Assembly (NCBI GenBank): GCA_005191425.1
Contig: SUPR01000011.1
Location: 20,327-52,326 of the forward strand
DNA from: Candidatus Helarchaeota ASGARD archaeon Hel_GB_B
GTDB taxonomy: Archaea > Asgardarchaeota > Lokiarchaeia > Helarchaeales > HEL-GB-B
DNA length: 32,000 nt
Reading direction: 5' to 3'
Part shown: positions 9,240 to 17,962 of the stretch, one piece after another
How the letters are laid out: each line of letters opens with the position of its first letter
How positions within the stretch are numbered: position 1 is the stretch's first letter
Translations under genes and position numbers: made by a program
Notes under the pieces: generated by a model
The model's input: only the letters and a program-made list of their open reading frames with translations
What the model was told of the DNA's origin: nothing
Databases searched by the model: none

Positions 9240-9632
9240 TTAGCCTTCAATTTTTTCAATAAACATTAAAGGGAAATTTAATTCTTCAATAAATTTTATA
9301 CGAGAATAGACGATTATATTTTCATATTCAGATATTAATTTTACATCAATTATTTCGCTGTTTAAAACAGAGTAGTCATAAGGATTTTCATGATTTTTCA
9401 ATTTATCAAAATTTATTTTTACATCTACGGATTTAATGTAAGGTTGCGTTGATATTGATTCTTCTATCATTTTTTCGACATTTGAAATAAAAATTTTATC
9501 TTTTTTTAATGGCATCCCTATAAATTGATGAAATAATGCGCCGAGACTAATTCCTGCCTCGAATATAGCCCGATCTCTTGCTAAAACTTCATTTCCAAAA
9601 AATTTTTTGATAATTTTTTCAGAATCGTTCAT
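9240..9632 (-). CDS. mptD: Archaeal dihydroneopterin aldolase (MptD family)
   Basis: RDRAIFEAGISLGALFHQFIGMP, IEESISTQPY and C-terminal LNFPLMFI match the MJ0408/MptD family. Confidence 0.85.
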   Translation of the reverse strand: MNDSEKIIKKFFGNEVLARDRAIFEAGISLGALFHQFIGMPLKKDKIFISNVEKMIEESISTQPYIKSVDVKINFDKLKNHENPYDYSVLNSEIIDVKLISEYENIIVYSRIKFIEELNFPLMFIEKIEG

Positions 9633-9762
9633 ATTGTTGATATAGGTTTATTTTAAATTTAATAATTTGTATTATTTGGAACTTTAAGATTAAAATGTAT
9701 TAAGATATATTTTGATTACAATAGGAAAAATATTAACAAAGTTAACCAGTTATCTTTCATTT

Positions 9763-9954
9763 TTATCTAAAATGAAGGTCTGCTATTGCTTTTGCAATTG
9801 AGAAACGCATTAATCTGTCTTTCTCGCTTAGATGGTCATATGCATGTGTTAAATCTTGAATTATCATCTTTTTTATTTGAATATCTACAGGTAATTCAAA
9901 TCTCTCTTTATTATTTATTATTTGTTTCATGAATAATATTTTAAAAAGATTCAT
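9763..9954 (-). CDS. Small hypothetical protein
   Basis: 63-aa ORF co-oriented upstream of mptD with protein-like composition; no recognisable motif. Confidence 0.45.
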   Translation of the reverse strand: MNLFKILFMKQIINNKERFELPVDIQIKKMIIQDLTHAYDHLSEKDRLMRFSIAKAIADLHFR

Positions 9955-10007
9955 AACATATAATCGAGTAATATATGAATATTATCAAAAAAAAATAGTG
10001 ATTCAAA

Positions 10008-10688
10008 ATGTCATGGATAAAATCATCCTTTTTGTCAATAGATTCATTTGTTGACAAATTCAAATTACAAAAATATGCAATTTATGAGACGATAGTTTCA
10101 ACTTTTAATAATAAACCGGATTTTCCCCATGCTGCACCAATGGGAATAATATTTAAAGATGATTATATCTCAATAAAGCCATACAAAACAAGTAGGACAT
10201 ATAAATATATGGATAAAAATAGGTGTGCAGTTATAAATTTTATTGATGACCTAAAGTTATTTTATATTTTTTCCCAAGAAGATAAAGATATGAGTAAATT
10301 GATGGATTATTTTAAAGTTGTTTCTGAATTTACGACGCCAATTTTTAAAAATTCCAATCTATCAATTGAAGTTAAAGTCTTAGAGGACGTCAGAAAAGAT
10401 GATATTCGGGCTGAATTCAAATGTGAGCCATTGAATTATATTTATAATATGGATTATCAAAAAGAATTTGAACCGATTAATAGAGCCACTGGATGTGTAT
10501 TAGAATCAATCATTCATTCGACCAGAATTTCATTATATCGAAGGTTAAATACTCCAGAACTAATTTCAAAAATAGACGGACTAATATCACTTTTAAAGCA
10601 TTATAGAAGAATAATAAAAAAGGTCTATCCAAATTCGGTATATTCATGGATTATAGATGATATTTTCAATAGATTAAAATTAGAATGA
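10008..10688 (+). CDS. DUF447 family protein (split-barrel, flavin-binding-like)
   Basis: IYETIVST...PHAAPMGI..., IKPYKTSRTY, AVINF, INRATGCVLESIIHSTR pattern recalled from archaeal DUF447. Confidence 0.75.
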   Translation: MSWIKSSFLSIDSFVDKFKLQKYAIYETIVSTFNNKPDFPHAAPMGIIFKDDYISIKPYKTSRTYKYMDKNRCAVINFIDDLKLFYIFSQEDKDMSKLMDYFKVVSEFTTPIFKNSNLSIEVKVLEDVRKDDIRAEFKCEPLNYIYNMDYQKEFEPINRATGCVLESIIHSTRISLYRRLNTPELISKIDGLISLLKHYRRIIKKVYPNSVYSWIIDDIFNRLKLE

Positions 10689-10713
10689 TTAAAATTTATA
10701 GGTTATTATAAAA

Positions 10714-11628
10714 TTATTCTCTGTCCATTAAAGAAATAAGGTCAATACCTTTTTTAATATTAGCACCGCAATTTCCGCAATAATTAGATATTTCTCTTAA
10801 AGGCGCCCCGCAAACAAAACATGATACTAAATTACCACATCTGTCGCAAAATAACGCGCCTTGATTTATAATTTCATTACAAAAAGGGCAGTGCTGAGTT
10901 TCTAATTGTGAGATATTAGAGAATTCTTCTATTTCTTCGCCACAATGAACACAATATCGAGATTTTTCTAAAATGAAATTGCCGCATTTTTTACATATTA
11001 TCTCTTTATGACAGTTAGGACAAGTATTTTCATCGTAATTGTTAATCTCATAGCCACAATAAACGCATTTTATTTTAGGTAATTCTACTTTTTTAGGTAG
11101 AATTCCTCTAATGTCAGATAGGATATCATAGGGTATAATTTTTGTTCTTTCTGTTTTACAATTTTTACAAAGATAAACAATTGTCGCATAATTAATTGCT
11201 TTCCAATCCCATCCAAACCGAGCTCTAATTGTTTCTAGTGATTTTTCTCCACATAAATCACATCTTTCAATCATCTCTTCAACGTGCCCTAACCAGTTAT
11301 TTTTTTCGCTTAACGGTAAAATAATTTTTTTTCGTTTTTTACATTTGACGCAACGACTAATAATAATTAATTGGTTCTTTTTAATTACACCCTTAATAAA
11401 AATAGTTTTTCTATTACAAAAATCACATTCTAATGCTTTACTCCAATCACTATGTTTGAAATTGGGAGTATTACTTTTACGAATAATTAAGCAGTCATCT
11501 ATTACTTGGAAATTTAATTCTTCTCCTCTTTCCCATCTTAAGATATGTTCAATAATATTTTTCGGGAGATATACATGAAAATAAAAACGTCCATTTCTTT
11601 TGATTACTTGGAGTTTCAAAATTTTCAC
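10714..11628 (-). CDS. AbrB/SpoVT-like N-terminal domain fused to multiple (double) zinc ribbons
   Basis: N-terminus 'GRFYFHVYLPKNIIEHILRWERGEELNFQVIDDCLIIRK' is swapped-hairpin-like, followed by 12 CxxC motifs. The called GTG sits inside AGGTGA, so the in-frame TTG at 11619 may be the real start. Confidence 0.7.
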   Translation of the reverse strand: MKILKLQVIKRNGRFYFHVYLPKNIIEHILRWERGEELNFQVIDDCLIIRKSNTPNFKHSDWSKALECDFCNRKTIFIKGVIKKNQLIIISRCVKCKKRKKIILPLSEKNNWLGHVEEMIERCDLCGEKSLETIRARFGWDWKAINYATIVYLCKNCKTERTKIIPYDILSDIRGILPKKVELPKIKCVYCGYEINNYDENTCPNCHKEIICKKCGNFILEKSRYCVHCGEEIEEFSNISQLETQHCPFCNEIINQGALFCDRCGNLVSCFVCGAPLREISNYCGNCGANIKKGIDLISLMDRE

Positions 11629-11716
11629 CTAATAATAAAAATTCTTATTTAAATAAAATGAATTAAACATTAAATAAAATTTTCTTTAATTTTCAAATAA
11701 ATAGTGGTAAGAATTT

Positions 11717-13087
11717 ATGACAGATTTAGAAGGAATGTCACGGGCACTCATTAATAAGAACATTTCAAAAACAAAAATCATTGATAAATTGGTCGAAGAA
11801 TATTTAATATATAAAGACATAACAGAGGAGAATGCGAGAAACTTAGCCGAAGCTGTATATGAAGAAGTTGTGAATAGTTCAATTGAACCGCGAGATGATT
11901 TTGTAAAATCATTATTGTTTTACCCAAAGAGTAATGTAACTATAGGTGAACAGGGAGTTGGATGCCGAGGATGGGGCGATTTTTTTGTCCATAATTTAAT
12001 TGCAAAATTATCTGAAACATCAAAAAAAGCATTTTTATCTCCAACTTCATTAGATGATGCAGGGGCTGTAGAATTTAATTCTATAGAAAAGGAAAATAAA
12101 ATTTATATAACATCTAAAATGGAAGGTATGCATTCTCGATTAAGTGATTTTCCCTTTATTGCTGGATTTCATGTAACTAGAGCTGCTCTAAGAGATTTAT
12201 ATGTAAAAGGTTCAGAACCAATTTCCATTTTAATTGACATACATTTGGCTGATGACTGTGATATAGGAAAACTATTTGACTTTATGGGGGGGGTTTCAGC
12301 TGTTGCAGAGCTGGCAGAAGTACCAATTACTGGTGGAAGTACACTAAGAATTGGCGGAGATATGGTCATTGGTACTCGAATTACAGGTGGAATTAGTGCT
12401 GTAGGAGTTGCAAAAAAAATATTAGCAAGAAAATTTATTACAGACAATGATGTTATTTTGATGACTAGTGGAGCTGGAGGCGGTACTATAGCTACAACTG
12501 CAATATACGGTGGTTTGCCAGATGTGGTTAAAGAAACAATTAATATAAAATTTTTAACAGCATGTAAAGCCATTTTTGATAATGGTCTCCAAAATGTCAT
12601 AAATAGTATGTGTGATGTTACAAATGGTGGAATTCGTGGCGATTTAAATGAAATTGCATATGAATCAAAAGTAGGAATGACAATTGATGAAGAGAAATTT
12701 AAATCTTTAATAAACCATAAAGTATATAAAATGCTAGAGAACTTAAATGTAGATTATTTAGGTGTCTCTCTTGATACATTATTAATATTCTGCCCGAAAT
12801 CTAGTGTAGATGAAATTATTTCAACTGTAAAAAGAGCAGGAGTAGATATTGCAATCATTGGTTCTACAAATAATAATAAAGGTAAAATTCAGATGAAAAC
12901 AAAAGATGGAAAAATTGAGTTGTTAACAAAATATAGAGAAAGTGCATATACAAAAGTTAAAAAAATAGTTGGTGAAGAAATTGACAATGAAATCAAGAAA
13001 AAATTGACAGATAAAATTAAGAAATCAGCCGATGATGCCTTACTTAAAAGAGAAAATATAGTAAAATGGATAAAACAAAATAAATAA
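11717..13087 (+). CDS. AIR synthase (PurM)/HypE-superfamily ATP-dependent enzyme, archaeal family of unknown function
   Basis: DDAGAV, KMEGMHSRLSDFPFIAGFHVTRAALRDLYVKG, GGSTL and CDVTNGGIRGDL motifs, plus an N-terminal helical extension. Confidence 0.8.
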   Translation: MTDLEGMSRALINKNISKTKIIDKLVEEYLIYKDITEENARNLAEAVYEEVVNSSIEPRDDFVKSLLFYPKSNVTIGEQGVGCRGWGDFFVHNLIAKLSETSKKAFLSPTSLDDAGAVEFNSIEKENKIYITSKMEGMHSRLSDFPFIAGFHVTRAALRDLYVKGSEPISILIDIHLADDCDIGKLFDFMGGVSAVAELAEVPITGGSTLRIGGDMVIGTRITGGISAVGVAKKILARKFITDNDVILMTSGAGGGTIATTAIYGGLPDVVKETINIKFLTACKAIFDNGLQNVINSMCDVTNGGIRGDLNEIAYESKVGMTIDEEKFKSLINHKVYKMLENLNVDYLGVSLDTLLIFCPKSSVDEIISTVKRAGVDIAIIGSTNNNKGKIQMKTKDGKIELLTKYRESAYTKVKKIVGEEIDNEIKKKLTDKIKKSADDALLKRENIVKWIKQNK

Positions 13088-13089
13088 GA

Positions 13090-14166
13090 ATGTGCTTTTT
13101 AATGGTTAAAGTTATTGGAATTGATCCTGGAACAAATTTATGGGGTATTGTAGGACTAGAAAATTCTACTATTATATATGAAAATGCCTTTCCAACAAAA
13201 AGAGTCATTAACAAACCAGAATTGTTAATAGATATCTTAGATTCAATTGAGGATATTGATTTAATTGTTGCGCCCAGTGGATTTGGGATCCCGTTGACTT
13301 CTATTACTGAGCTTACCCATGAACAAATTTTCGAATTGACATTAAAAAGACAAAAATCAGGGTCTGAGTTAGTTGGTCTAGGAAGAGTAATTGACCTTTT
13401 ATTAAAAAAAGATTATAATGCATATTTTATACCAGGTGTAAAACATTTACCAACAGTACCTTTATATAGAAAAATAAATAAAATAGATATGGGGACTGCA
13501 GATAAAGTTTGTTCGGCAGCTCTCTCTATTTTTGATCAATCAAATTATTATAATATTGATTATGATAAGACGAATTTTATTTTAATTGAACTAGGAAGTG
13601 GTTTTACTGCAATATTGGGAATAAAAAACGGACAAATTGTTGATGGAATAGGTGGTTCATCTGGTGGATTGGGTTTTATGGGTGGTGGCGCATTAGACGG
13701 TGAACTCGCATATATATTAAAAGACATAAAAAAGTCAACAATTTATCAGGGAGGAATAACATCAATTGTTGGTTCATCGCAACTAAGTCCTGAAGAATTT
13801 ATGTTGCTAATAGAAAAAGATGATAGATGTAAAATAGCATTTGATGCATTAATAGAAAGTATATGTAAAAGCGTGCTAGCAATGACTATTTCAGTAAATA
13901 AACCTAAGGAAATATTATTGTCTGGAAGATTATCACAGCAAGAAGAAATGTTTGGTGCACTAAATAAAAGATTATCATATATAGCACCATTAAGAAATAT
14001 ATCTGGACTAGCTGGAGCAAAATATACAAAAGAAGCCGCCCAAGGAGCTGCCTTAATTGCAAATGGCTTGGCTGATGGTCAATATAAAAAATTGATTGAA
14101 AATATGAAAATTAAAGATGCATCAGGTTCAATTTTTGATAATATTTATTATGATTTACCTGAATAG
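13090..14166 (+). CDS. DUF1464 family ASKHA-fold kinase-like protein (predicted butyrate-kinase-like)
   Basis: VIGIDPGT phosphate-1 loop, APSGFG, IDMGTADK, ELGSGFTA, DGIGG and LSGR motifs. Confidence 0.78.
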   Translation: MCFLMVKVIGIDPGTNLWGIVGLENSTIIYENAFPTKRVINKPELLIDILDSIEDIDLIVAPSGFGIPLTSITELTHEQIFELTLKRQKSGSELVGLGRVIDLLLKKDYNAYFIPGVKHLPTVPLYRKINKIDMGTADKVCSAALSIFDQSNYYNIDYDKTNFILIELGSGFTAILGIKNGQIVDGIGGSSGGLGFMGGGALDGELAYILKDIKKSTIYQGGITSIVGSSQLSPEEFMLLIEKDDRCKIAFDALIESICKSVLAMTISVNKPKEILLSGRLSQQEEMFGALNKRLSYIAPLRNISGLAGAKYTKEAAQGAALIANGLADGQYKKLIENMKIKDASGSIFDNIYYDLPE

Positions 14167-15135
14167 GTGGTGTATAAAATTTCTGAATTACCGGATATAC
14201 AAAATCAATTATCACTTATCCCAATTAAAATAGATAAAGTCGGTATAAATAATGTTAGGACTCGAGTAAAAATTAGATATGACCATAAAGATTATGAATT
14301 TACACCTTTAATTTCTGCAGTTGTTGAATTACCCAATAATCTTCGTGGCACGCATATGTCTAGAAATAGTGAAACTATCGAAGAAGTCATTGACGAAATA
14401 TCTCACAAACCCGCTAGAAGAATTGAAGATATTACAAAAAATATGGCATTTAGACTATTAGAAAAACACGAATATACATCAAAAGTTGAGGTACTTTTAG
14501 ATGGAATATTAGTTATTGATGTATTTCAAGAGGGTAAAGGCAAAGTCCAGAAAAGTCTTGAAATACATATTAAAACAGAAGGATTTAAAGACGTAGAAAA
14601 TGAAAATAATAAAATAATACGACAATATTTGACAGTTTCTATTATTGGAATGAGTGCTTGCCCTTGTGGACAAGAATTATCTAGAGATTATGCTAGATCT
14701 ATCCTGGAAAGTCGAAAAAATGAATTTCATATTGATGATAAAATAATAAATGATATTCTTAACCTTGTTCCTATGGCAACTCACAGCCAAAGATGTATCG
14801 GAACTATAACAATTGAAATTCCATCAAATTTCGACATTGAACTTTTAGATTTAATTAAAATTATAGAACAAAGTATGTCCGGAATTACATATAATATTTT
14901 AAAACGTACGGACGAAGGAAAATTAATTAGATATTCACACCTTAATACAAGATTTGTTGAAGATTGTATTAGAATAATGGCTTTGAATTTGTTTAAAAAA
15001 TATATAAATCTTCCAGATAATACGACTGTTAATTTCAAAGTTGAAAGCCAAGAAAGTATTCATCCTCATAATGCTATAGCCGAAATACATTCAACTATTG
15101 GAAATTTAAGATATGCTTTTAAAAATAAGGTATAA
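14167..15135 (+). CDS. mptA: GTP cyclohydrolase MptA (type IV; FolE2/MptA family)
   Basis: LPDIQ, RGTHMSR, GMSACPC, THSQR, FVEDCIR and ESIHPHNA motifs. The GTG start abuts the previous stop codon. Confidence 0.9.
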   Translation: MVYKISELPDIQNQLSLIPIKIDKVGINNVRTRVKIRYDHKDYEFTPLISAVVELPNNLRGTHMSRNSETIEEVIDEISHKPARRIEDITKNMAFRLLEKHEYTSKVEVLLDGILVIDVFQEGKGKVQKSLEIHIKTEGFKDVENENNKIIRQYLTVSIIGMSACPCGQELSRDYARSILESRKNEFHIDDKIINDILNLVPMATHSQRCIGTITIEIPSNFDIELLDLIKIIEQSMSGITYNILKRTDEGKLIRYSHLNTRFVEDCIRIMALNLFKKYINLPDNTTVNFKVESQESIHPHNAIAEIHSTIGNLRYAFKNKV

Positions 15136-16162
15136 TTATATGAAAAATATGCTTGCATGTGAAGGGTTCTTTATAGAAACTTATGATGGACTAATATTTG
15201 ATGTTAAAGGACATATTCATCCAGAAAATAAAATTATTTCATTTATTAGATATTTCCCTGCTATTGATGGAAATAGAAAAAGAAATGGAGTGAAATATAA
15301 AAAGGTCTATTCTATCTCAGATAGAACAGAAATATTGCGTAAAATTCACCCAGAATACTTGTTTTATGACCCTATTTTGGATACAAATCTTCAAGGTGTT
15401 CTAAATAAAGATATAAAATATATCTATAATCCTGTTAATTTTAGATTAACTTTAAAGAAAAAACAGAATTTGACCAGTTTACAAAAATCTGCACTGAATT
15501 TTACAGATATCCTCATAAACTCGACAAATTGTGATGAAAATAAAATTGGAATTTCGGGTTCCCTCATGGTTGATTTGGAAACAAAAAATTCAGATATAGA
15601 CATAATAATCTATGGTGCAAAAAATGTTAGAATGGTATATGATAATATGTCAAAAATTTTTTCTGATAAAAATGATATAAATAGATACTCGATAGATCAA
15701 TATAAAAAATTATATAAATTTAAACGAAAAGATACCAAGATATCATGGAAAGATTTTATTAAAATTGAATCAAGAAAACTTTTTCAAGGAATATTTAAAG
15801 GAATAGATTTTTATATTAGGGGAATTAAAGACTGGGATGAAATAGAATATTCATATGGTGATTTTAAAATCAAAAATTATGGATATGCAACTATAAAAGG
15901 ACGTATAAAAAATAATTCAGAATCTATTTTTACTCCTTGTATTTATAAAACTTATGAAACTGAAATACTGACTAAAAATTTTCCAGATCTTCAGATTGAT
16001 GAGATTTTTTCATATCGGGGCAGATTTTCTGAATTATTAAATGAGGGCGAATCTTTCATTGCTCATGGTAAAATTGAAAAAGTTATTACAAATACCAAAA
16101 GTTCATATTATAGATTAATTGTAGGTTCCAGCAAAAACGATTACCTAAAATTAGTAGATTAG
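15113..16162 (+). CDS. Pol-beta superfamily nucleotidyltransferase with C-terminal OB-like domain (COG1665-like), copy 1
   Basis: GISGSLMVDLETKNSDIDIIIYG (GS...DxD), N-terminal FFIETYDGLIFDVKG..HP, C-terminal beta-rich region ending G.IEKV...RLIVG. The in-frame ATG at 15140, with AAGGT 8 nt upstream, is a more likely start. Confidence 0.8.
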   Translation: MLLKIRYNYMKNMLACEGFFIETYDGLIFDVKGHIHPENKIISFIRYFPAIDGNRKRNGVKYKKVYSISDRTEILRKIHPEYLFYDPILDTNLQGVLNKDIKYIYNPVNFRLTLKKKQNLTSLQKSALNFTDILINSTNCDENKIGISGSLMVDLETKNSDIDIIIYGAKNVRMVYDNMSKIFSDKNDINRYSIDQYKKLYKFKRKDTKISWKDFIKIESRKLFQGIFKGIDFYIRGIKDWDEIEYSYGDFKIKNYGYATIKGRIKNNSESIFTPCIYKTYETEILTKNFPDLQIDEIFSYRGRFSELLNEGESFIAHGKIEKVITNTKSSYYRLIVGSSKNDYLKLVD

Positions 16163-16166
16163 GAGG
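16161..16166 (+). promoter_or_regulatory. Shine-Dalgarno motif AGGAGG overlapping the stop codon of NTase copy 1
   Basis: AGGAGG lies 7 nt upstream of an in-frame ATT (16174) of NTase copy 2. Confidence 0.6.
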
Positions 16167-16173
16167 CTCTAAA

Positions 16174-17229
16174 ATTAAAGATTTAGTATTTAAGGATCGA
16201 GACTTTATTTTGACTAAAGATAACTTCTTTTTTTGTATTGTTGGGTATGACCATCCATCAGATCGAATTATTTCTTATTTAAAATATGCACCTGATACTG
16301 TTGGAAAATGGAAGATGGACGAACAGCCGCTTAAAAGAATGATCCCATTTTATTCAGCAATATCAGTCCAGAAAAGCTTAAAATTTCTTGAGAATTATCC
16401 AGATTACATTTTTAATGATAAATTTAATAATGTTAAAATTTCAGCAGTACCACTCACTTATGTTAAAAAATATTATGAAGCTGATAAAAAAATTGAAGAA
16501 ATTGCTAATTTAAAAAAGCGAGATGCCCTTCAAGAAAAAGTTATTGCTCTTGTAGATTATTTAAAGGATAAAAGTGGTGTAAATAGGGATAAATTTGGTG
16601 TTACAGGTTCGATTTTAATAAATATTCATAATCCGAAATTTTCAGATATAGATTTAACAATTTATGGAGTTAATAATGCTAAAAAAATTAAAAAAACATT
16701 AATTATGGAATATGATGAATCCAAAAGAATTAAACAATTTAAATCCAATCACGAGATCGAAAATTGGATAAAAAGAAAAACAGAGCAATTTAATTTTAAT
16801 AAAAAAATTGCAAAAATCATATTATCAAGACAATGGTCATTTGGATATTTTGATGATACAAGATTCTCAATTCATCCAATAAAAGAAATAAAGAATATAA
16901 ACAATAATTATGGAAATGAGCAATGTAAATATTTAGGGCTTGCAAAGATAAGAGCAATGATAAAAGATTCTAATAATAGTATGTTTTTGCCGTCTAAATA
17001 TGTAATTGAAGATGTTGAAATAATCAAAGGTAAAAAATCAGAGAATTTGAATCAAATTATTTCCTATGAAGGTATTTATTCTAATATAGTAGAAAATGGG
17101 GAAAAAATTGAATCATATGGAAAATTAGAAGAAGTATTTGATTTAAAGACAAAATCGAAATATCAGAGATTGCTAATAGGTTCCTATGAGGCAAAAGGTA
17201 ATGATTATATGATCCCAATTGACTTTTAA
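16174..17229 (+). CDS. Pol-beta superfamily nucleotidyltransferase with C-terminal OB-like domain (COG1665-like), copy 2; proposed ATT start (ORF track uses TTG at 16210)
   Basis: GVTGSILINIHNPKFSDIDLTIYG motif. The frame is open back to 16114, and the residues upstream of the TTG (VFKDRDFI-LTKDNFFF) align with ACEGFFIETYDGLIF of copy 1. Confidence 0.78.
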   Translation: MKDLVFKDRDFILTKDNFFFCIVGYDHPSDRIISYLKYAPDTVGKWKMDEQPLKRMIPFYSAISVQKSLKFLENYPDYIFNDKFNNVKISAVPLTYVKKYYEADKKIEEIANLKKRDALQEKVIALVDYLKDKSGVNRDKFGVTGSILINIHNPKFSDIDLTIYGVNNAKKIKKTLIMEYDESKRIKQFKSNHEIENWIKRKTEQFNFNKKIAKIILSRQWSFGYFDDTRFSIHPIKEIKNINNNYGNEQCKYLGLAKIRAMIKDSNNSMFLPSKYVIEDVEIIKGKKSENLNQIISYEGIYSNIVENGEKIESYGKLEEVFDLKTKSKYQRLLIGSYEAKGNDYMIPIDF

Positions 17230-17629
17230 CTTTAATTTATTAAATTAAATAATAGTTTTACATTAATATTCCAGTTAATTTATTGTGTATATAACAAATT
17301 CTTCTCCTTATAACATCGAAAATTTCTCAAAATTTGTTCTATTAATTGCCTATTAATTTTTAAATAAATTTTTGGATAATTTAATACTAAAAAAGTACTT
17401 TTTTCCATGAATTTTTACAATAAAAAATCATAAAATTATAAAAAATTAAAAAGTATCTTAAAAATAAATTTATATAAGAATTAAATTAAGTAAATCGACC
17501 TAAAATATGGAATAAAAATCGTATAATACTAATAAAATATGATTTCTTAATTATTGTGTTGAATTATTAATCAGAATTGACCATAAAATATTTAATTAAT
17601 AATAGAATATAATGAAACAGGTATTAAAA

Positions 17630-17962
17630 ATGTGCGAATTTCGAGTAAAATTAAAAGATGGAAATGTTTTAACAGATATTACAGAAGGTATTGTATTTTG
17701 TACAATAAAAGACGGTGAAATTATCTTTAGAGGCTTAGGAGTTGAGAAGAAAGTATCCGGTGGAATTATTACTGAATTTAATGTTATAGGAGAAGAAAGT
17801 GCATACATACATATTGTGAAATCACCCATAATTAGTGAGTTTCTTAAATTCATAGATAAAGAGCAAGAAAACAAAAATGGAAATTTGTCCAAAACAGACC
17901 TATTAAATGAATGGGAAAAAGTTAATGGTAATATTAAAAATTTCTTGATGAATTTGGAATAA
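17630..17962 (+). CDS. CooT-like (putative Ni-binding) small protein with C-terminal extension
   Basis: From the second in-frame ATG (17630, AGGT 7 nt upstream) the protein starts MCEFRV, the Met-Cys start typical of CooT, followed by a short beta-rich domain. The ORF track starts at 17612. Confidence 0.55.
   Translation: MCEFRVKLKDGNVLTDITEGIVFCTIKDGEIIFRGLGVEKKVSGGIITEFNVIGEESAYIHIVKSPIISEFLKFIDKEQENKNGNLSKTDLLNEWEKVNGNIKNFLMNLE

Follow-up and report, generated by a model that had tools for sequence, protein, structure and literature searches.

A 32,000-nt stretch of contig SUPR01000011.1 (assembly GCA_005191425.1, positions 20,327 to 52,326) from the Helarchaeota archaeon Hel_GB_B, hereafter the window, carries between its positions 9240 and 17229 a group of genes that we read, with a probability of roughly 75%, as serving the biosynthesis of tetrahydromethanopterin (H4MPT) or of a closely related carrier of the H4MPT type. 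Two recognizable pterin genes, mptA and mptD, lie here with members of four orphan families, namely a PurM-like ATPase, a DUF1464 protein and two nucleotidyltransferases (NTs) of the MJ1086 type, NT1 and NT2. Conserved gene order and genome distribution tie these four families firmly to the pterin cluster, and it is likely that all of them are H4MPT pathway enzymes. H4MPT is essential for methanogenesis, anaerobic methane oxidation and the archaeal Wood-Ljungdahl pathway, including that of Asgard archaea. The methanopterin pathway was outlined in the 1990s, and to our knowledge no enzyme has been assigned since then to the formation of its ribitol, second ribose-phosphate and hydroxyglutarate phosphodiester. 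What appears to be new here is the tie of DUF1464 and the MJ1086-type NTs to this pathway, for which we found no published link. Together with CitG-like, PurM-like and DUF447 proteins they are concrete, assayable candidates for the unassigned steps and, if the reading is true, the orphan families are possible targets for methanogen-specific inhibitors.

Conserved linkage to tetrahydromethanopterin genes

All seven family calls made in a first-pass annotation of the window (MptD, DUF447, PurM-like, DUF1464, MptA and two Pol-beta nucleotidyltransferases) were confirmed with hidden Markov models (HMMs). MptD (9240-9632, minus strand; Pfam DHNA PF04038, 117.7 bits) matches the solved MJ0408 (PDB 2ogf, E 2.7e-19) and is assigned as the archaeal dihydroneopterin aldolase. 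MptA (14167-15135, plus strand), the sole copy found in the genome, scores 285.8 bits with the TIGR00294 equivalog (cut-off 220) and 205 bits with PF02649, and is assigned as the archaeal GTP cyclohydrolase, the first pterin-branch step. The PurM-like gene (11717-13087, plus strand; AIRS and AIRS_C domains) opens a co-oriented block in which it is followed by DUF1464 (13090-14166; PF07318, 323 bits against a cut-off of 23.5), mptA, NT1 (15140-16162, with an alternative ATG at 15113 that overlaps mptA; NTP_transf_2, 21.3 bits) and NT2 (16210-17229 from the first canonical start, TTG 16210; NTP_transf_2, 23.3 bits), the cut-off being 21 for both NTs. The operon geometry described at first pass likewise held, with the open reading frames (ORFs) in place. 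DUF1464 begins after a gap of 2 nt from the PurM-like gene and is followed by mptA with a gap of 0 nt; NT1 comes 4 nt after mptA, or overlaps it by 23 nt if ATG 15113 is the start, and 47 nt separate NT1 from TTG 16210 of NT2 (11 nt from the in-frame ATT 16174). A 382-nt AT-rich spacer comes next, so the block is taken to end at NT2. Upstream, the DUF447 gene (10008-10688, plus strand; DUF447_N 62.6 bits, DUF447_C 23.2 bits, slightly below its cut-off of 24.8) is transcribed divergently from mptD, and the same divergent pair recurs in relatives.

In two sister families the corresponding operon (loci L003, L004, L034 and L052) runs PurM-like, MptG, DUF1464, dihydropteroate synthase-like (DHPS-like), MptA, NT1, NT2, and is colinear with the window plus two genes. 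The first of these, in the interval between the PurM-like gene and DUF1464, encodes ribofuranosylaminobenzene 5'-phosphate (RFA-P) synthase (MptG; NF040726 at 348 bits, above the cut-off of 328). The second, between DUF1464 and mptA, is an MJ0301-type DHPS-like gene (TIGR00284, 344 bits against 257). Because the sister operons hold these committed H4MPT enzymes, we read the block in the window as an H4MPT operon from which this genus appears to have moved two genes elsewhere. Neither MptG nor the MJ0301-type gene was detected in the window by ORF and HMM survey; on other contigs, the genome encodes two TIGR00284-type DHPS-like proteins (C70, 347 bits; C73, 263 bits), MptE (C113) and a contig-end fragment of MptG (C102) that was found by tblastn only. 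The earlier observation that genes for MptB, MptE and pteroate synthase are not visible consequently applies to the window and fails for the genome, given MptE and the two DHPS-like genes. Compared with the methanogen H4MPT genes (MptA, MptB, MptD, MptE, MptG and MJ0301-type), the window shares MptA and MptD, and the orthologous operons add MptG and the DHPS-like gene; the window differs in being without MptG, the DHPS-like gene, MptB and MptE and in having DUF1464 and two MJ1086-type NTs.

Within the same class, DUF1464 is present in 40 of 41 genomes. Across 20 loci from genomes of this class, covering 10 kb on either side of DUF1464, MptD was found at 16, DUF447 and MptA at 13 each and the PurM-like gene at 12, with at least one pterin gene at 19. 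Jord- and Freyarchaeia carry MptG, DUF1464, the DHPS-like gene, MptA, NT1 and NT2 in succession, then a CitG-like gene 4-6 kb further on.

The orphan families are not restricted to Asgard archaea and extend to Bathyarchaeia, Nitrososphaeria, Thermoproteales and MSBL1, with NT2 relatives specifically in Asgard lineages, Bathyarchaeia, MSBL1 and Nezhaarchaeales. At an MSBL1 locus an NT gene lies beside DUF1464 and a GHMP-kinase-family gene that is probably RFA-P synthase, and in Nezhaarchaeales the CitG-like gene and the orthologues of NT1 and NT2 stand together. A 779-kb contig from the TACK group holds the CitG-like gene and four NT paralogues followed by Ftr, Mpt_N and genes for Fwd subunits, and in Vulcanisaeta DUF447, DUF1464, MptA, Ftr, NT2 and the CitG-like gene fall inside about 12 kb. 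We surveyed the neighbourhoods of the best 80 loci (80 species) among 299 NT2 relatives in species-representative genomes. The most frequent neighbours were NT1 (51 loci, 44 of them within 300 nt), the CitG-like gene (38), Ftr (24), NT3 (20) and NT4 (16), and these were joined by MptA (14), the DHPS-like gene (13), MptG (12) and DUF1464 (12), the range for MptA, MptH and MptG being 12-14. At least one non-NT pathway gene was near NT2 at 60 of the 80 loci, and the CitG-like gene lay no more than 300 nt from NT1 at 15 of the 33 loci holding both. For comparison, we estimate roughly that, with a genome of 3 Mb, any one single-copy gene would lie within a particular 20 kb in fewer than 1% of cases.

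Adjacency in the window could in principle be fortuitous and the four orphan genes unrelated to pterin metabolism, given that tight packing is common in this genome and that an unrelated zinc-ribbon gene sits inside the cluster. Gene-neighbourhood and co-occurrence analyses nevertheless found the linkage to persist in relatives from other orders, classes and phyla, among which gene order varies, and the families co-occur with Ftr, which leaves chance hardly credible.

Genes for H4MPT-dependent enzymes are encoded off the window (two Ftr matches, Mch at 405 bits and an MtdB-like match to Mpt_N), and since Ftr, Mch and MtdB-like genes are encoded, the genome was counted as a user of the cofactor. 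The phyletic pattern was drawn from 101 Asgard genomes, each at least 80% complete, and is reported as counts rather than as a statistical test because related genomes are non-independent. Ftr was found in 67 of these and NT genes in 70. Of 24 GTDB families, 14 had both, 8 had neither, and in 2 they disagreed. All 46 genomes in which DUF1464 was found belong to NT-positive families, and the CitG-like gene was found in 82 genomes, including 65 of the 70 that were NT-positive. Gene order and distribution bear out the first-pass proposal of a pterin or one-carbon-carrier cluster, whereas its suggestion of an undescribed Asgard route or a special modified folate is not supported, given the canonical MptG and DHPS-like genes in sister operons and the occurrence of the families beyond Asgard archaea.

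Nucleotidyltransferases and their possible role in the methanopterin tail

In methanopterin a phosphodiester links an alpha-ribosyl-5-phosphate to hydroxyglutarate, and for this reason a CitG-like protein acting with an MJ1086-type NT is the most economical reading of the recurrent pairing. CitG uses 5-triphosphoribose from ATP to form an alpha-glycosidic bond, and CitX and MdcG, transferases of Pol-beta fold from the citrate lyase and malonate decarboxylase systems, form a phosphodiester with loss of pyrophosphate. MptA and MptD supply the pterin branch. In the proposed scheme, the CitG-like enzyme would place an alpha-linked 5-triphosphoribosyl group from ATP on the ribitol hydroxyl of an aryl-ribitol intermediate, and an NT would then resolve the triphosphate, with pyrophosphate released, to give the phosphodiester to 2-hydroxyglutarate. 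By analogy, MJ1086-type NTs may work with the CitG-like protein, which we propose tentatively and at somewhat less than even odds. The fuller assignment, in which the two together attach the alpha-ribosyl-5-phosphate and 2-hydroxyglutarate of methanopterin and DUF1464, PurM-like and DUF447 proteins fill further steps of the aryl-ribitol branch, is a shade more tentative still. The gene table of the methanotroph Methylomonas lists mch, an alpha-L-glutamate ligase and a 'triphosphoribosyl-dephospho-CoA synthase' consecutively (PMC11533326), an order that fits a link between CitG-like proteins and H4MPT in bacteria too.

NT1 and NT2 are 29% identical over their full length and are two of four NT paralogues in the genome, the others being on contigs C9 and C181; each of the four has its own orthologue on the 779-kb TACK contig. 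In NT1, the motifs G137-x2-G140-S141 and D152-x-D154 show no variation among 26 orthologues, and because G-x2-G-S and D-x-D are invariant across all NT paralogue groups, every copy looks catalytically competent. The AlphaFold2 model of NT2 (predicted local distance difference test score 94.6) comprises an N-terminal beta domain, a minimal Pol-beta nucleotidyltransferase (NTase) and a C-terminal oligonucleotide/oligosaccharide-binding (OB) fold, and its NTase core gives Z scores of 7-7.8 to CutA, Pol X and terminal uridylyltransferases (TUTases). No solved structure matches the whole protein. The sole full-length match among Swiss-Prot models is MJ1086 of Methanocaldococcus jannaschii (Q58486), itself uncharacterised, with template-modelling (TM) scores of 0.86/0.85, a root-mean-square deviation of 2.7 across 351 aligned positions and 26% identity; it is the single M. 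jannaschii entry in that search, against four NT paralogues here. Prediction of an NT1-NT2 complex scored 0.02 against a mark of 0.32, which speaks neither for nor against binding.

Several observations weigh against the assignment of the cluster and of the NTs to H4MPT synthesis. A literature search that did not include the older key papers turned up no work dealing with DUF1464, with COG1665 or with any nucleotidyltransferase of methanopterin synthesis, nor any biochemistry for any of the four orphan families. The CitG-like gene lies outside the window, on contig C115, and CitG-like genes are more widespread than NTs, occurring also in 17 NT-negative Asgard genomes and in Haloferax. In Asgard family f6 (G045, G056, G066 and G076), Ftr is present and no NT or DUF1464 was found; these genomes (1.3-1.4 Mb, 93-98% complete, with matches to Ftr, CitG-like and TIGR03123) either get the cofactor differently or use other enzymes. 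Lineages hold one, two or four NT paralogues, a difference for which the assignment does not account. DUF1464 was not found in two methanogen controls, so it cannot be a universal pathway step. CitX and MdcG Pfam models matched 0 of 30 NT family members at E up to 1, and MdcG, whose appearance in a fold search of AlphaFold Database (AFDB) clusters with NT2 speaks for the CitX-like scheme, is only weakly similar there (rank 20, probability 0.96, E 6.3e-3, TM 0.25/0.35). Finally, the NT2 OB fold finds its best likeness among nucleic-acid-binding domains, namely the OB domains of MCM, SSB and the aspartyl-tRNA-synthetase anticodon-binding region (Z about 7-8.7).

Part of this pattern would suit a different pterin-type carrier, folate-like or sulfopterin-like, with the orphan enzymes decorating a lineage-specific side chain. 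The variable NT copy number points that way, as does the presence of DUF1464 in Sulfolobus alongside its apparent absence from the methanogen controls, and two Asgard genomes of family f5 have the cluster genes with no Ftr found. Canonical MptG and MJ0301-type genes nonetheless stand in the orthologous operons, this genome encodes Ftr and Mch, the NT family tracks Ftr across Asgard families, and the NT fold is present in M. jannaschii, the MJ1086 fold match being the one basis for placing NTs in methanogens; we regard such a variant carrier as improbable.

The OB fold and the likeness of the NTase core to CutA, TUTases and Pol X could also be taken to mean that NT1 and NT2 act on RNA or tRNA, with mptA linked to them through the synthesis of 7-deazaguanine (archaeosine). 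This is very unlikely, since no tRNA-modification genes recur at the 80 NT2 loci where CitG-like, Ftr and Mpt genes do, NT distribution follows Ftr and is not universal as archaeosine is, and a plasmid relative of NT2 described below is found among kinase, phosphatase and methyltransferase genes, a cassette of small-molecule type.

The bacterial holo-acyl carrier protein system likewise pairs a protein of the CitG family with an NTase of Pol-beta type, and the CitG-like protein and NTs might make a protein-bound 2'-(5''-phosphoribosyl)-3'-dephospho-CoA-type group for an archaeal C1-pathway enzyme instead of a methanopterin tail. The adjacency of NT and CitG-like genes at many loci and the weak MdcG fold match would be in keeping with this. 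Telling against it are the position of NT genes in the same operons as those for MptG, the DHPS-like enzyme and MptA, and the score of the CitG-like protein, far under the cut-offs of the CitG and MdcB equivalogs (44 bits against 272); next to the pairs we saw no gene for a CitD- or MdcC-like carrier, though no systematic search was made. We judge a prosthetic group of this kind unlikely, and H4MPT synthesis remains our preferred reading. What the CitG and CitX or MdcB and MdcG pairs share with the present one is a CitG-family protein partnered with a Pol-beta-fold transferase, a chemistry that suits the methanopterin tail. The NTs differ from CitX and MdcG in their extra N-terminal beta and C-terminal OB domains and in having no CitX or MdcG sequence match, and, unlike the citrate lyase and malonate decarboxylase systems, no carrier-protein gene was seen here and the CitG-like gene is on a separate contig.

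Further relatives of the NTs were met in these searches. Other weak matches of NT2 among AFDB clusters are fukutin and a triphosphoribosyl-dephospho-CoA synthase entry. The rank 7 match, A0A7V8VEV0 (452 aa), has a CMP/dCMP-type deaminase domain fused to an MJ1086-type body (residues 162-451), a fusion that might hint at the class of substrate. Full-length but distant relatives of NT2 (about 20% identity, E about 1e-9) are carried by 13 Streptomyces plasmids; in the single record that we inspected, a Streptomyces anulatus plasmid (NZ_CP109318.1, 145108-150326), the relative is accompanied by a GntR regulator, a histidine phosphatase, an APH-family kinase and a methyltransferase, a cassette that suggests a small-molecule substrate. 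The fourth NT paralogue of the present genome (contig C181, L112:3025-9254) adjoins genes for phosphoribosyl pyrophosphate synthetase, a nitroreductase-family protein, a metallo-beta-lactamase-fold protein and a B12-binding radical SAM protein. A 267-aa gene beside NT4 here is not homologous to the 263-aa gene that lies between the CitG-like gene and NT1 at locus L025.

The PurM-like, DUF1464 and DUF447 proteins

The PurM-like protein is 456 aa long and has about 95 residues before its first domain match. It resembles the PurM superfamily (PurM, PurL, ThiL, HypE and SelD) in its AIRS and AIRS_C domains and in an apparently intact nucleotide-binding motif, the stretch LDDAGAV, which we take to be that of the superfamily; it differs from the named subfamilies by its extra N-terminal residues and by scores far under all tested equivalog cut-offs. 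None of the ThiL, HypE and SelD cut-offs is reached (48-67 bits against 125-300), the best equivalog being ThiL (67 bits against 184), with HypE at 48 bits against 252, and among solved structures HypE comes closest (E 1e-6). Orthologues from different Asgard lineages share 52-73% identity, and a plasmid search returned no plasmid-borne relatives. The gene is immediately upstream of MptG in the four sister-family loci, and in Freyarchaeota it remains paired with DUF447 apart from the main operon.

A pairing of PurM-like and DUF447 genes, with a CitG-like gene associated, is also a feature of the 'archaeal-like' H4MPT islands of methylotrophic bacteria, whose 'orf19' would be a possible counterpart of the PurM-like gene. 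Work of 2005 by Chistoserdova, Kalyuzhnaya and their colleagues reportedly found AIR-synthase-related, DUF447-type and CitG-like 'orf' genes to be needed for dephospho-H4MPT in Methylobacterium.

DUF1464 is predicted to be an ATPase or kinase-like protein of the ASKHA (acetate and sugar kinases, Hsp70, actin) fold. Its nearest solved relative, weakly, is butyrate kinase (E 2e-3), and the stretches IGIDPGT, ELGSGFT and LLSGRLS are presumably the ASKHA phosphate and adenosine motifs. Its gene lies between the MptG and DHPS-like genes in the sister families and in Jord- and Freyarchaeia. We considered whether DUF1464 substitutes for the TIGR03123/MfnF-type ASKHA protein and rejected this, as both are encoded in this genome and in many Asgard families, with no complementary distribution. 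The DUF447 protein matches the structural-genomics entries 2nr4, 2iml and 2ptf. Solved relatives bind flavin mononucleotide, and DUF447 would be a candidate for a flavin-dependent pathway step. It is linked to MptD, DUF1464 or the PurM-like gene at 13 of the 20 class loci and also in Freyarchaeota and Vulcanisaeta.

The individual roles that we sketch for these three proteins are guesses from family chemistry and gene position, each speculative and more doubtful than the assignments proposed for the NTs. The PurM-like protein might carry out an ATP-dependent replacement of oxygen by nitrogen, or a phosphorylation, on the RFA-P branch; DUF447 might catalyse a ribofuranosyl-to-ribitol reduction; and DUF1464 might act as a kinase or phosphohydrolase between the MptG and DHPS-like steps.

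NT2 start, minor genes and loci on other contigs

The window is AT-rich, with a G+C content of about 27%, and derives from a genome of 3.5 Mb in 182 contigs that is 94% complete with a contamination estimate of 4.9%. The reading frame of NT2 probably begins upstream of TTG 16210, as the conserved N-terminal residues DRDFI (aligned to orthologue P0003) are encoded before that codon. No ATG, GTG or TTG is available upstream of TTG 16210 (window positions 16150-16215), and an in-frame ATT at 16174 sits 8 nt past a GGAGG at 16162-16166, making this non-canonical codon a possible candidate start.

Between the DUF447 and PurM-like genes lies a gene for a 304-aa protein with multiple zinc ribbons (10714-11628, minus strand). 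Locus L002, from a relative in the same genus, was the only one of the 20 class loci at which it was found, and it is probably a lineage-specific insertion or a regulator. Downstream of the block, a small CooT-like gene (17612-17962, plus strand) scores 25.9 bits with PF10133, just below the cut-off of 27; a CooT gene also lies just upstream of the NT gene at the MSBL1 locus (L022:4910-5092).

A second, partial copy of the operon occupies part of the 5.8-kb contig C73 (L115:1-2483), with a DUF1464 fragment 46% identical to that of the window, a PF02441 flavoprotein that is possibly DmrX-like, and the second TIGR00284 DHPS-like gene. This may be a genuine paralogous cluster, or the contig may be a contaminant. 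Two radical SAM genes on contig C115 were considered as methanopterin methylases ('HMPTM-like') and set aside, as NCBIfam assigns them as tetraether lipid synthase (Tes)-like (NF045702, 457 and 429 bits, cut-off 450), and because this pair proved Tes-like, a similar radical SAM gene at locus L023 is also uncertain. Both Tes-like genes (L113:1957-6700) are about 9 kb from the CitG-like gene. Contig C121 (L117:8192-9940) carries a methanofuran module in which a TIGR03123/MfnF-type gene (330 bits) adjoins an MfnE-like gene of amino-acid-kinase fold, and in several other Asgard genomes 9-17 kb separate the MfnF-type gene from an NT3/NT4 pair.

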